IMG/VR virus record: IMGVR_UViG_2563366972_000004
DNA from: a virus
Lineage: Duplodnaviria; Heunggongvirae; Uroviricota; Caudoviricetes
Direction: 5' to 3' (one strand)
DNA: 46,713 nucleotides
Part shown: piece after piece, positions 4,109-7,639 of the stretch
How positions within the stretch are numbered: the first letter of the stretch is position 1
Layout: every line of letters starts with the position of its first letter
Notes under the pieces: generated by a model
What the model saw: only the letters and a program-made list of their open reading frames with translations
The model's database searches: none
What the model was told of the DNA's origin: nothing
Position numbers and translations under genes: made by a program

Positions 4109-4405
4109 TTATACCTCTGAATCAATATCAACCTGATGGTGAGCAATGGTTTCAACCATGTACCGGATGTGTTCCGCCATGCGCTCCTGAAACTCAACAT
4201 CGTCATCAAATGCACGGGTAATGGCTTTTTTGCTGGCCCCGTGGCGTTGCAAATGATCGATGCATAGCGATTCAAACAGGTGCTGGGGCAGGCCTTTTTC
4301 CATGTCGTCTGCCAGTTCTGCCTCTTTCTCTTCATGGGCGATCTGCTGGTAGTGACGCGCCCAGCTCTGAGCCTCAAGACGATCCTGAATGTAATAAGCG
4401 TTCAT
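4109..4405 (-). CDS. gam: Gam RecBCD inhibitor, short form (98 aa)
   Basis: [21 protein letters not shown]...[10 protein letters not shown] matches recalled lambda GamS. Confidence 0.92.
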
Positions 4406-4480
4406 GGCTGAACTCCTGAAAATGGCTGTGAAAATATCGCCCGCGAAATGCCAGGCTGATTAGGTAAACAGGAAAGGGGA

Positions 4481-4687
4481 TTAGTGATTCAGACCGTTGC
4501 CGCGCCCGTCGAGAAAAACTTCCACGAGCAAGTCACGGGTATAAGTGCGCTCGATGCCGCGATGCAGATAAAGCCGTCCGCGTAAATTAGCTGATGCAGT
4601 CCAGGTACCATCTTTGTGTTTGACCAGCATTCCTGGCATGACCGCACCGCGATTAACGGTCTGCGTTCCGTAATGTTGATGAACCAT
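4481..4687 (-). CDS. Hypothetical early protein in the kil/cIII position (68 aa from ATG at 4687; frame stays open to 4891)
   Basis: Best SD (AGGAG, 6-nt spacer) precedes the ATG at 4687. Frame is open upstream with a weaker ATG at 4771 and an Arg-rich segment. Not recognised as lambda kil or cIII. Confidence 0.4.
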   Translation of the reverse strand: MVHQHYGTQTVNRGAVMPGMLVKHKDGTWTASANLRGRLYLHRGIERTYTRDLLVEVFLDGRGNGLNH

Positions 4688-4949
4688 AAAAACTCCTGCC
4701 CGTAAGCTGGGCTGCTGAACATATAGAGACTTCTGCGCGTATTCAGGCGGTGGATGGCCGCCGGTTGTCATAACTAAGCCGCCTCGTTGAAGCGACTGAG
4801 GTATAAAGTGTTGTGTTGATTTCAGCTGGTCACACCGACGTTCACGCGTCCGCTTCACCCCTCGCACTCCCCGGAGCCTGCTGAAATTCAAGCTGCGGAT
4901 CTAAGCGGTCATCGCAACGGTGAATCAGGTGATTGCCGTATCGTTGTGT

Positions 4950-5030
4950 TGTTGCGACATGGGGATAATAGCTATTGCTATTGATGATATCAATACTTAT
5001 TGCTATTGCTAGATGTGTTTTGATATTAAA
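4950..5030. promoter_or_regulatory. Candidate OL/pL operator-promoter region
   Basis: Non-coding; two copies of TTGCTATTG(C) (4975-4983, 5000-5009) flank an inverted repeat TATTGAT-gat-ATCAATA (4979-4995). The same TTGCTATTG motif occurs twice in the cI-cro intergenic region. Confidence 0.4.
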
Positions 5031-5130
5031 TGTTTGATAGCAAAAAGAATTAATTTTGTGACTTGCATCGCATAGCGATAACTGAAGCGAGGTCGTGGTG
5101 GTTTTTTGAACGGTGTGTGATGAGGGGAGG

Positions 5131-5162
5131 GCAAAAGAAAACCCGGCACGGTGGCCGGGTTT
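5131..5162 (-). terminator. Intrinsic terminator closing the cI-distal cassette
   Basis: CCCGGC-acggtg-GCCGGG stem (5142-5159); on the minus strand it is followed by TTTTCTTTTG. Lies 77 nt after the stop of the 147-aa gene. Confidence 0.55.
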
Positions 5163-5236
5163 AGATGATTGGTTAAGAGCGAGGGTAATGGGGAATGAAA
5201 AATCGCTTTACCTAATGCAAGGGTGCGAGCATTTTC

Positions 5237-5680
5237 TTAAGCACTAAAGAAAAAGTACATTGATAGCTTATAAAGTCCTGTTCCTGCAGCGATGATTGCT
5301 GGAACACCAAGCAATACCGCAAGCTTTGCGTCTGAAATCTTTCTATCGACAGCATCACTTGATGGCTTGTTTGTTAAGGATTCTTTTATAGAGTCCAGAC
5401 GTGCAAGAATAGTTATCATATTTTTGTCGATAGCTTTAACGTCTGTTTTAAGTTCATCAACGTCTCGTTTGATATGAGCAACATCGGACTCCAGTTTTGC
5501 AACTTTTTCAGGCATGTTATCACTCCCAGACCCACTGCTACCACTTGATTGTAGCATGTCCCATCTTTTTCCAGATATACCTGCTAGCTGGGAAGACGCA
5601 CTGGAGTGCAAACAAAATGATTCTGCCGCCTTTGCAATTTTATCATTTAGGTTTGGAGCTTCGTAATAATCGTGTTTCAT
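5237..5680 (-). CDS. Unrecognised coiled-coil protein with single C-terminal membrane anchor (147 aa)
   Basis: ORF in track, ATG start. Gly/Ser linker (SSGSSGSGSD), heptad-like region (KVAKLESDVAHIKRDVDELKTDVKAIDKNMITILARLDSIKESL), C-terminal hydrophobic stretch LAVLLGVPAIIAAGTGLY. AT-rich. Confidence 0.6.
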   Translation of the reverse strand: MKHDYYEAPNLNDKIAKAAESFCLHSSASSQLAGISGKRWDMLQSSGSSGSGSDNMPEKVAKLESDVAHIKRDVDELKTDVKAIDKNMITILARLDSIKESLTNKPSSDAVDRKISDAKLAVLLGVPAIIAAGTGLYKLSMYFFFSA

Positions 5681-5692
5681 AATTAATTACGA

Positions 5693-5956
5693 TTAGTTTG
5701 TTTTAGCTTTGTCATGCTGGTCGCGAATGAAGTCAGCCAATTTAAGCATCAATTCTTCGGGCATTCTAATGGTTGCAATGTTGTACTTTATGTTCTCAAC
5801 ATCGTCACTTTCATCAACAGGCCATTCAGTTACATTATGAAAAAAAGAAATTGAACCTAGGCGCTGAGAGCCGTCACCAAACGAAGAGTAGCCAAACGCG
5901 TCGGCGTATGCATCGACACAGTTATTTGATTTTTTAACAAGTGTTTTATTACTCAT
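5693..5956 (-). CDS. Unrecognised small acidic protein (87 aa)
   Basis: ORF in track, ATG preceded by GGGAAAGG; stop 12 nt before the next gene's start. C-terminal IATIRMPEELMLKLADFI resembles a ribbon-helix-helix strand plus helix (tentative). AT-rich. Confidence 0.55.
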   Translation of the reverse strand: MSNKTLVKKSNNCVDAYADAFGYSSFGDGSQRLGSISFFHNVTEWPVDESDDVENIKYNIATIRMPEELMLKLADFIRDQHDKAKTN

Positions 5957-6038
5957 TTTTTGCCTTTCCCGTAATGTTATTTTTTATAAGGTATTTTCTT
6001 CAGCGTATTACCCAAAAGCCTCATCAACACGCGGCTGA

Positions 6039-6731
6039 TTATCCGTGTTTTCTGTACGTCTGCGGCATGCTCCCAATAACCTTACCGAATATGAATACCC
6101 GGTTCATCTCGTCTTTCTCGATCGGGTCCCACGGTGAGTAGCTCTTGTTATCAGAGATAACCAGTAGCTTATCCTTCATCATTTGCAGGCGCTTTACATG
6201 GGCGGTGTCGTCATACAGAAACGCATAGATACCATCACCGTCGAAAGATTTAACCGTGATATCAACGAACAGCAGATCACCTGGTTCGATCGTTCCTGAC
6301 ATGCTGTCACCACGCACGTTAATGATGCGGATATTTTCCGCCTTCCTGCCATCGAACATGTGACGAGCATCGTCAAACGAGTATTCAACCGAGCGTAGAA
6401 CTTCTACAAACTCACGGTTGATTACACCCGGCCCGGCACTGACTTCTATATCAAGAACGTCAATTTTGAAGTATTTGGAATGGCTGACAGCAGGCTTCCC
6501 TGATTGTTGACCGTCATTTCTCATCGGGCCTATGCCTGATGAGAGCCATTCTGTTCGAACACCCAATGCATTAGCTATTTCAACAATTTTTGTTGAGCCG
6601 CGCGCGTTGCCGCTTGTCAGTCTCCAGATTGTGGGTTGAGCTACGCCAGACGCCTTTGCAAGAGCGCCTTGAGACATTCCAGATTGTTCCATCGCTAGGT
6701 TTAAGCGATCAGCAAGAGTTTCTTTTTTCAT
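6039..6731 (-). CDS. cI: CI-like prophage repressor: N-terminal HTH, C-terminal S24 LexA-like peptidase domain (230 aa from ATG at 6731)
   Basis: HTH (MSQGALAKASGVAQPTIWRL) plus C-terminal autocleavage-type domain. The ATG at 6731 has no SD, consistent with a leaderless pRM transcript as in lambda; the track's longer ORF begins at an upstream TTG. Confidence 0.8.
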   Translation of the reverse strand: MKKETLADRLNLAMEQSGMSQGALAKASGVAQPTIWRLTSGNARGSTKIVEIANALGVRTEWLSSGIGPMRNDGQQSGKPAVSHSKYFKIDVLDIEVSAGPGVINREFVEVLRSVEYSFDDARHMFDGRKAENIRIINVRGDSMSGTIEPGDLLFVDITVKSFDGDGIYAFLYDDTAHVKRLQMMKDKLLVISDNKSYSPWDPIEKDEMNRVFIFGKVIGSMPQTYRKHG

Positions 6732-6841
6732 AAGTTTTAATTTATACGCTTGCGTATTGATGGTCAAAACACGTTTTGCTATTGCTTGGATTAATACGCA
6801 TTGCTATTATTCATTCATTGCAATACCAATAGGAATTGATA
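6732..6841. promoter_or_regulatory. OR / pRM-pR divergent control region
   Basis: Intergenic between divergent cI and cro; perfect palindrome ATACGC-tt-GCGTAT (6744-6757), TTGCTATTGC (6776-6785), TTGCTATT (6801-6808), palindrome ATTGCAAT (6817-6824). Confidence 0.6.
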
Positions 6842-7069
6842 ATGACAAATCAAACCATTCAACTCGCAATCAGTATTACAGGTAGTCAAAAACGACTGGC
6901 AGATCTATGCGGTGTAGCCCAACCCACAGTTTGGCGTTGGCTACACGGTGGCGGAATTGATGCCCGCTATGTAATGAAAATTGTCTCAGCCACTGGTGGA
7001 AAGATTAAACCAGCAGATATTCGTCCCGACCTCGCACCATTGTTTAACGCGAGTAATTCTGCCGCCTAA
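6842..7069 (+). CDS. cro: Cro-like HTH regulator (75 aa)
   Basis: Small HTH protein (GSQKRLADLCGVAQPTVWRWLHGG) divergent from cI; ATG at 6842 with AGGA 8 nt upstream. Confidence 0.75.
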   Translation: MTNQTIQLAISITGSQKRLADLCGVAQPTVWRWLHGGGIDARYVMKIVSATGGKIKPADIRPDLAPLFNASNSAA

Positions 7070-7093
7070 ACTGCGGCGTTAACTGATAAGGCA

Positions 7094-7639
7094 ATGACTA
7101 TGCAACCACTTACATACCAACAGACTAGCGGATTTAGCCCGACTGCGGTGATAAATCGTTCTCAAACAAAACAGGCGCCAGGCCACGAAAAAATCCGTGA
7201 TGCCGTTCGCGCCTGGTCGGCTGCAGATAATCAGGATGTTGTTGCCGCACTCATTGTGAATGAGTATCGGGAGCAGGGCGGCGGCACCATCGATTTCCCT
7301 GATGATGTCAGCCGTGCACGCCAGAAGCTGTTCCGCTTCCTCGATAACAAATTCGATTCTGAAAAATACCGAAATAACGTGCGTGAACTGACCCCGGCAA
7401 TTCTGGCGGTACTACCGCTGGAATATCGCGGCCACCTGGTTGAGCAGGATAGCTTCATGGCTCGGCTGGCTGAAATGGAAAAGGAACTCAGTGAGGCAAA
7501 ACAGGCTGTCATTCTCAACGCACCACGCCACCAGAAACTGAAGGAAATTAGTGAAGGTATTGTGTCGATGTTTCGTGTGGACCCAGATCTGGCTGGTCCA
7601 TTGATGGCGATGGTTACTACCATGCTGGGGGCGATATGA
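7094..7639 (+). CDS. CII-position regulator, YdaT-like (181 aa)
   Basis: Position right after cro; segment ...EYREQGGG...PAILAVLPLEYR... resembles recalled Rac YdaT-type proteins (from memory, unverified). Confidence 0.5.
   Translation: MTMQPLTYQQTSGFSPTAVINRSQTKQAPGHEKIRDAVRAWSAADNQDVVAALIVNEYREQGGGTIDFPDDVSRARQKLFRFLDNKFDSEKYRNNVRELTPAILAVLPLEYRGHLVEQDSFMARLAEMEKELSEAKQAVILNAPRHQKLKEISEGIVSMFRVDPDLAGPLMAMVTTMLGAI

Follow-up and report, generated by a model that had tools for sequence, protein, structure and literature searches.

A two-gene cassette downstream of the repressor gene

The window analysed here, a stretch of 46,713 nt from a tailed virus of the Caudoviricetes (IMG/VR record IMGVR_UViG_2563366972_000004), carries two small minus-strand genes between a cI-type prophage repressor gene and the left operator and promoter (OL/pL), and the question raised by this locus is what the two genes, called A and B below, do in a lysogen. 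The gene order is cI, A, B, terminator and OL/pL, and A-B thus occupies the slot that holds rexAB in phage lambda. We consider it quite probable that A-B is a lysogen-expressed membrane module, and an anti-phage role, counting sensor/effector and entry-blocking forms together, appears somewhat favoured. More specifically, A-B may be a sensor/effector module, expressed in the lysogen, that excludes phages by a Rex-like logic although its proteins are not homologous to Rex; we give this reading a probability of roughly one in three (about 0.35). A-B would count among the exclusion-type cassettes known from prophage repressor operons, with a realistic chance of representing a new family-level system.

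The exclusion conferred by lambda rexAB has been studied for about 70 years, and its mechanism is still unresolved. A-B lies in the same slot and is common in Escherichia coli, yet it is labelled "hypothetical". Its two-component design, a soluble protein of 87 amino acids (aa) and a coiled-coil protein with a single transmembrane (TM) segment and predicted nested isoforms, should be easier to dissect than RexAB.

A sequence-only reading of the window had placed two minus-strand genes between cI and OL/pL, and both open reading frames (ORFs) were confirmed at exactly these positions. Its assignment of a rexAB-type slot also held in a promoter and terminator scan, with A-B lying 3' of cI and 5' of OL/pL and no terminator in between. 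Specifically, the spacer between cI and A contains neither a terminator nor a sigma-70-like promoter on the minus strand, so read-through from the repressor operon into A-B is expected. The ATG of B follows the stop codon of A after 12 nt. As had been remarked from the sequence, the cassette is AT-richer than its flanks, with a GC content of 0.393 against 0.466 for cI, 0.50-0.52 for kil, gam, bet and exo, and 0.513 for the whole window.

Gene A encodes a small soluble protein

A matches phrog_4231 ("unknown function") at 7e-54. The product is soluble and acidic, as had been described, although only mildly so (pI 4.96), and its predicted fold is a four-strand sheet with a C-terminal helix. The possible ribbon-helix-helix (RHH, Arc/MetJ) C-terminus proposed earlier was rejected, because A ends in one strand and one helix that close the four-strand sheet. 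Neither A nor B had been recognised from the sequence, and database searches bore this out. For A, no significant match was found in Pfam, NCBIfam, PADLOC, a PDB sequence search or a fold search. The sequence and profile searches gave nothing significant for B either, for which Pfam and NCBIfam returned only coiled-coil noise and PADLOC-DB v2 returned matches of E >= 0.004 and at most 13.5 bits.

Both genes are under selection. Pairwise dN/dS (the ratio of nonsynonymous to synonymous substitution rates) among four to five alleles was 0.05-0.13 for A and 0.09-0.12 for the core of B, which reflects purifying selection on both, whereas it was 0.17-0.58 for the N-terminal extension of B. These values indicate that both genes are real and that the extension is translated, under looser constraint.

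Gene B carries a conserved internal start signal

B matches phrog_3556 ("unknown function") at 1.5e-58. The protein consists of an N-module (residues 1 to about 45), a Gly/Ser linker, a coiled coil (56-103), a KPSS break and one C-terminal TM segment. Across residues 55-112, 14 of the 17 a/d heptad positions are hydrophobic, and the only hydrophobic segment covers residues ~115-137, with conserved Pro, Gly and Thr residues in the TM segment. The AlphaFold2 (AF2) model, which is of low confidence, has a helix at 10-26, disorder at 27-55, a helix at 56-103, the KPSS break, and a helix at 108-145 that includes the TM segment. Heptad scan, hydrophobicity scan and model agree with the 147-aa protein with Gly/Ser linker, coiled coil and single C-terminal membrane anchor that the sequence-only reading had outlined. 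B is predicted to be a tail-anchored inner-membrane protein whose coiled coil is most likely cytoplasmic; the lack of a signal peptide, the 115-residue hydrophilic N-terminus and the Lys-rich juxtamembrane stretch "KKPS..KK" point to an N-in/C-out topology.

The long-form ATG (5680) is not preceded by a Shine-Dalgarno (SD) sequence, and translation of the long form (B-long) is therefore probably coupled to that of A. An SD sequence does lie within the linker-coding region, upstream of an internal ATG (Table 1). Initiation at this codon would give a short form (B-short) that comprises the coiled coil, KKPS and the TM segment and is devoid of the N-module. A strong SD core (GGAG, GAGG or AGGA) was found before an internal ATG or GTG in 39 of 41 loci, which are related to one another, most commonly at a spacing of 7 nt; 21.4 of the 41 would be expected under synonymous resampling of the linker codons with the genes' own codon usage. 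Moreover, no N-module family lacks the signal, which is also present in a B-type protein of Serratia that has no sequence similarity to B, and the long frame of B is open at all loci. In our view B is probably made in two nested forms, B-long and the 92-aa B-short.

Homologues of B are often annotated as the short form only (90-93 aa) with the long frame intact. We therefore rejected the idea that such "short B" genes (P0014 and others) are truncations, since gene callers prefer the internal start. A third in-frame ATG (5555-5557, minus strand; codon M42, "MLQSSGSSG...") is the NCBI start in many annotations and gives 106-107 aa. The lengths of 147, 106 and 90-92 aa in databases thus reflect alternative start annotations of one gene.

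With a profile of the B core, the best PDB sequence matches were trimeric coiled coils, all non-significant, namely the P22-family tail needle gp26 or "DNA stabilization protein" (E 0.03-0.2), Lpp and designed CC-Tri peptides; they are no more than a hint of a trimeric state. Membership of B in XhlA, Lpp or FlaC was rejected, because only sub-threshold coiled-coil matches were obtained.

Partner genes and the membrane core vary as separate units

A deep search with a hidden Markov model of the B core identified a small family of about 29 clusters at E < 1e-10, and all homologues with a named source organism came from Enterobacterales. Among 39 relatives of B, 38 matched phrog_3556 and none belonged to a named Pfam family. 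The family has a fixed plan: a variable N-module, of which there are about a dozen types, a Gly-rich linker, Met, a coiled coil with the motif "E-x-R-V-A-x-L-E-x-D-V-x-H-I-K", "KKPS" and one TM segment.

A census of about 100 viral and genomic loci yielded 40 distinct pairs of partner gene and B, 37 of them with enough upstream sequence. A small ORF abuts or overlaps the long start of B in 34 of these 37 pairs; in the remaining three, all from one conserved locus on the Pantoea chromosome, a short-form B stands alone. The gene 5' of the partner, classified with a small reference set, was cI-like in 19 cases, Mnt in three, DUF6246 in three and unclassified in ten, and there was none in two. Additionally, a single-TM coiled-coil gene comes next after A, at -53 to +12 nt, in 43 of 44 A-containing viral loci; for the remaining one, no downstream ORF was captured by the filter.

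The partners form nine unrelated families, of which A represents P1. Homology of A with a 93-aa partner family was considered and discarded (hhalign probability 0.1). The partner families had no Pfam or PADLOC match, and ten non-A partner proteins gave none in PADLOC-DB v2. Each N-module family occurs with a single partner family, whereas tail type T1 is common to all nine partner families, and A pairs with at least six different coiled-coil/TM tail types. Because the N-module tracks the partner while the T1 tail spans all families, partner plus N-module and coiled coil plus TM segment are two separately exchangeable units, joined at the conserved linker and internal start.

In one E. coli protein of 134 aa (P0070), residues 1-57 of A are joined to the coiled-coil/TM tail of a UPF_BP1-type B. 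The junction lies exactly at a "DVENIK" stretch present in both genes (compare L001:4724-5461). A "Rosetta-stone" fusion of A and B was therefore rejected in favour of an apparent deletion, in which the shared DVENIK stretches recombined as short repeats inside the cassette.

The lone short B genes of Pantoea (L004:5815-6294, L005:5995-6297 and L007:5995-6297) have kept the SD sequence and are flanked by genes for an AraC-like regulator and a 314-aa membrane protein. At the same locus, Ca. Pantoea communis (L006:4481-5220) carries phage-type genes and a long-form B together with another coiled-coil ORF. The Pantoea locus may be what is left of a prophage, either simply kept or domesticated.

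The module occupies three types of prophage slot

The region of the window is 100% identical to the lambdoid prophage at the DLP12 site (argU) of E. coli SE11. Of 5,426 complete E. coli genomes, 198 carried the full cassette, O26 and O103 strains among them. Identical copies of A and of B each occurred on at least 1,000 contigs. Among the matches listed, the cassette is always annotated as "hypothetical protein (x2)" beside an XRE/S24 repressor. In protein-level searches of 50,697 phage records, the cassette was found only in Salmonella phage UPF_BP1, together with weak matches in Enterobacter phages.

The module was found in three independent types of slot, after cI, after Mnt, and between the tail chaperone and tape measure genes, which in model phages hold the exclusion genes rexAB (lambda), sieA (P22) and gp15 (HK97). 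The slot downstream of cI is occupied in the window, in loci L017, L020, L008 and L010 and in many viral contigs. The order Mnt, A and B-type gene was found in UPF_BP1 and in P22-like prophages of E. coli, Leclercia and Serratia. In these prophages A directly follows mnt, at the position of orf59a in P22, and starts at -23, -8, -4 or +2 nt relative to the mnt stop codon, so that the genes overlap or abut; the module lies in the interval from mnt to gene 16, where P22 has orf59a and sieA. Mnt is the maintenance repressor of P22 and is made in lysogens, and expression in the lysogen is therefore most strongly suggested for the mnt-overlapping copies. Siphophage prophages of the Raoultella and Serratia type carry A-B, or a different partner with B, among their tail genes, flanked by a tail chaperone-like gene (DUF6246) and the gene for the tape measure; the HK97 gp15 moron sits in the same kind of tail-gene slot.

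Sister phages carry other cargo in the cI slot. Perceval, PhiR68_2 and Lambda_4C10 have other two-gene cassettes between cI and the same terminator stretch of about 60 nt, which is common to many lambdoid phages and ends other cargo cassettes in all three cases examined. The slot is thus a hotspot for cargo, and its terminator is part of the operon and not of the cassette. The hairpin and U-tract that had been taken for the cassette's own terminator are real, but they are not specific to this cassette. The Lambda_4C10 cassette is the PADLOC candidate PDC-M11A/B (2.9e-133 and 6.8e-52), with an ASCH domain in the B component. For the PhiR68_2 and Perceval pairs there was no Pfam or PADLOC match, and one second gene is annotated as "transmembrane protein". 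Ipe, an exclusion/haemolysis protein of coliphage mEp021, was considered and dropped, because mEp021 is non-lambdoid and the searches of phage records yielded the cassette in UPF_BP1 only, apart from the weak Enterobacter phage matches.

Candidate functions of the cassette

An anti-phage role is favoured by the equivalence of the slots with those of rexAB, sieA and gp15, by the defence-candidate cargo and by the conflict-like diversification of the recognition unit. In the sensor/effector model, A-B would be an accessory (moron) module carried within the repressor operon of the prophage and transcribed with the repressor in the lysogen. A most likely docks on the N-module of B-long, and it would fall to partner and N-module together to recognise a cytoplasmic phage cue. 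The membrane effector would be the conserved coiled-coil/TM unit, which would oligomerise and disturb either the inner membrane itself or some process located there. B-short might co-assemble through the coiled coil and serve as a built-in modulator, similar to holin/antiholin or SieB/Esc pairs. In an extended version, the short isoform would be an antagonist that sets the firing threshold. A-B would then be the founding member of a large Enterobacterales prophage immunity family, with a nested-start membrane effector, a short antagonistic isoform and exchangeable N-modules, each matched to a small, hypervariable cytoplasmic sensor from one of at least nine unrelated families, and it would be borne in cI or Mnt repressor operons and in tail-gene moron islands; we hold this version to be tentative and somewhat less likely than the simpler model. 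If such a chassis exists, it would constitute plug-and-play abortive infection with RexAB-like logic but evolutionarily unrelated.

The same observations can be read in other ways. Superinfection exclusion at the entry step, in which B, like SieA or gp15, would block DNA translocation or ejection proteins with A as a cofactor or chaperone and with neither sensing nor cell damage, seems rather unlikely. It would fit the position of the cassette at the sieA region of P22-like prophages, as only 22 of 66 P22-like phages carry sieA (PMC10883804), and the gp15-type slot beside the tape measure gene. The exchangeable TM tails found with A would suit differing membrane targets, and the weak, non-significant PDB matches included a tail needle. 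However, the entry-blocking model proteins considered here, SieA and HK97 gp15, each consist of one polypeptide, an entry block would hardly account for a partner and N-module that are cytoplasmic and hypervariable, the bulk of B is predicted to be cytoplasmic, and no similarity of A or B to SieA was found by BLASTP. We give equally low odds to lysogenic conversion unrelated to defence, that is, a membrane complex that alters envelope physiology, stress tolerance or host interaction to the benefit of the lysogen. Predicted co-expression with the repressor recalls the lysogen-expressed morons bor and lom, and both the lone short B conserved in Pantoea and the frequency of the cassette in E. coli genomes and contigs are compatible with such a role. 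Diversification of partner and N-module into nine families without a known domain is more typical of conflict systems, however, and the alternative cargo of the slot, where examined, is a defence candidate.

Two further explanations are, in our view, very unlikely. The cassette might be an addiction or toxin-antidote module that stabilises the prophage, with B or B-short as a membrane toxin that A, or else the other isoform, keeps inactive. The genes are small and tightly coupled, with ORFs that overlap or nearly do so, the nested isoforms recall holin/antiholin logic, and the conserved Pro, Gly and Thr of the TM segment would also fit such a module. On the other hand, the cassette lacks a dedicated promoter as well as an antitoxin domain that could bind DNA for autoregulation, the module is embedded in the repressor operon, A and B matched no toxin-antitoxin family, known membrane toxins are much smaller, and short B persists alone in Pantoea. 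Just as improbable is a role in regulating the phage itself, for example its induction, its choice between lysis and lysogeny or the timing of lysis, in which B would tether A to the membrane until a signal sets it free. The cassette adjoins a maintenance repressor, cI or Mnt, and a precedent exists in gp30/gp31 of phage Butters, where a membrane protein sequesters a soluble partner, as summarised in PMC12894663. Yet the module accompanies repressors of unrelated types (S24-helix-turn-helix cI alleles as well as RHH Mnt) and is also present in tail-gene islands with no repressor nearby, which argues that it is linked to a timing of expression and not to one regulatory circuit; moreover, it is dispensable, since sister phages carry other cargo.

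Several points weigh against the sensor/effector exclusion module that we prefer. Its anti-phage function is deduced from position and architecture, and position is weak evidence, as these slots also hold non-defence morons. A and B have no known defence-protein homology, with only coiled-coil noise in PADLOC-DB v2, and BLASTP revealed no similarity of either protein to RexA/B, SieA, SieB or orf59a. The co-variation of partner and N-module could reflect physical linkage, with recombination breakpoints in the conserved linker and at the start of the coiled coil, instead of protein contact. The AF2 model of B has a pLDDT (predicted local distance difference test score) of only 58, and the P-value of the SD test is overstated because the loci are related. 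Three Pantoea species keep the lone short B at one chromosomal locus without partner or prophage, which implies that the core is able to persist alone, possibly for a host function. Finally, no paper was found that names A or B or contains their accession numbers, locus tags or PHROG ids, but Brenes & Laub 2025 and Cumby 2012 may hold a prior description; the former is the study most likely to have tested cI-adjacent cargo of this sort. A and B are not in the supplements of DefensePredictor or Vassallo 2022.

If A-B acts in defence, it would be a common prophage-borne barrier relevant to phage therapy and to the spread of Shiga toxin (Stx) phages, and it would fill a gap in annotation tools that now miss it. 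The nine partner families, the dozen or so N-modules and the six or more TM tails are natural swaps for mapping specificity and effector functions. If A-B has no part in defence, it remains a widespread, predicted lysogen-expressed membrane module.

Other features of the locus

The coordinates of the features are collected in Table 1. The repressor matches PF00717 (1.5e-18), PF01381 (1.5e-06) and phrog_4 (9e-70). Its ORF reaches 6767 when read from a TTG, and the RefSeq start in the annotation of the identical SE11 region gives 230 aa. A plus-strand terminator-like hairpin with a T-run (6029-6048) overlaps the cI stop codon; it may halt antisense transcription from the cassette side into cI, or it may be a chance match.

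A strong pL-like promoter (4993-4965; TTGATA-17-TATTAT, 10 of 12 matches) sits among the repeats of the AATAGCAAT-type motif, which was also seen by eye in the OR region. The interval between pL and kil (4688-4964, minus strand; kil itself is at 4481-4687) contains no N-like ORF and no boxA. The SE11 copy and Perceval also pass directly from the pL region to kil, and locus L020 has an N gene after the cassette. The 261-nt N-less pL leader folded no better than shuffled sequences (z = 0.13) and matched no Rfam family. Across 4300-7200, Rfam families gave only chance-level matches. One of the weak ones was isrJ, a Salmonella Hfq-binding small RNA, at 5138-5219 on the minus strand (21 bits, where the gathering score is 37; E = 0.89), between the B stop codon and the terminator; the hairpin of the terminator most likely produced this match by chance.

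Table 1. Features of the A-B cassette and its surroundings, with the cassettes found in the same slot of sister phages
Feature	Position	Strand	Basis or remark
cI-type prophage repressor, HTH_3 + Peptidase_S24	6039..6731	minus	Pfam, PHROG, RefSeq annotation
cI-A spacer, 82 nt	5957..6038	minus	promoter/terminator scan and sequence
Gene A, 87 aa, phrog_4231, partner family P1	5693..5956	minus	ORF, PHROG profile, dN/dS
Gene B, long form, 147 aa, phrog_3556	5237..5680	minus	ORF, PHROG profile, AF2 model
Internal Shine-Dalgarno GGGAG of B, within Gly/Ser linker coding sequence	5523..5527	minus	7 nt before internal ATG
Predicted nested short form of B, 92 aa from M56	5237..5515	minus	ATG 5515-5513; conserved family core
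Intrinsic terminator closing the repressor-cassette transcript	5131..5162	minus	9-bp stem, 6 G-C pairs, T-tract
OL/pL region with repeated AATAGCAAT-type operator motifs	4965..5044	minus	promoter and motif scans
Alternative cassettes	PhiR68_2 L027:3061-4516; Perceval L029:3068-4618; Lambda_4C10 L028:3064-4480		340-353 aa + 125-168 aa

Comparison with known systems

The B-short form resembles the XhlA "hemolysin" of Bacillus prophages (PF10779) in size, in its N-terminal coiled coil and in its one C-terminal TM segment. B had weak profile matches to XhlA-type PHROGs (phrog_1193, 1.4e-4; phrog_937, 1.2e-3), and one UniRef name in the B cluster is "Hemolysin XhlA". The Pfam XhlA model, however, scored 12.1 bits against B (E 0.23; cut-off 34.7), and none of the 39 relatives matched it at E <= 0.001. 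XhlA genes belong to lysis cassettes, whereas B is found in repressor operons and moron islands. The similarity between B and XhlA is probably compositional, stemming from the coiled coil.

The predicted nested forms of B have parallels in SieB/Esc of P22 and S105/S107 of lambda, in which nested in-frame starts in one ORF give an effector and an antagonist. In these systems, as predicted for B, the shorter product is devoid of an N-terminal regulatory segment. S107 differs by only two residues, whereas the forms of B would differ by about 55, and the additional part is not an N-terminal TM region. B had no BLASTP similarity to lambda SieB.

HK97 gp15 is likewise a small prophage moron product encoded in the slot between tail chaperone and tape measure genes that some partner-B cassettes occupy. 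It was compared with A-B by slot and description: gp15 is a single 62-aa protein without partner or coiled coil. That gp15 acts in superinfection exclusion is taken solely from the title under which PMC10883804 cites Cumby 2012.

P22 SieA is a prophage inner-membrane protein, as predicted for B, and A-B lies in the interval between mnt and gene 16 of P22-like prophages. SieA acts without a partner as one polypeptide, about 160 aa long, for which three TM domains are predicted (PMC10883804); the crude scan that found one hydrophobic segment in B found four in SieA. Additionally, sieA has its own promoter, whereas these A-B copies lie inside the mnt operon.

The closest counterpart in layout is lambda RexA/RexB. 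Both cassettes come straight after cI in the same orientation and are followed by a terminator and OL/pL, and both consist of two genes with the soluble product first and the membrane product second. Rex-type systems have been described as a soluble partner that acts on a membrane effector, encoded 3' of cI (PMC12894663). The proteins themselves differ. RexA has 279 aa against 87 for A, with a different predicted fold. RexB has four TM segments against one hydrophobic segment in B by the same scan, and B adds a long coiled coil as well as a nested second start and an exchangeable N-module, both of which Rex lacks. A RexA-like DNA-binding protein of about 280 aa is absent, with no BLASTP similarity of A or B to RexA/B and no PADLOC Rex match. 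Although it fails all homology tests, to RexA/RexB, SieA, SieB, XhlA and RHH proteins, A-B is Rex-type in its layout and two-component logic.

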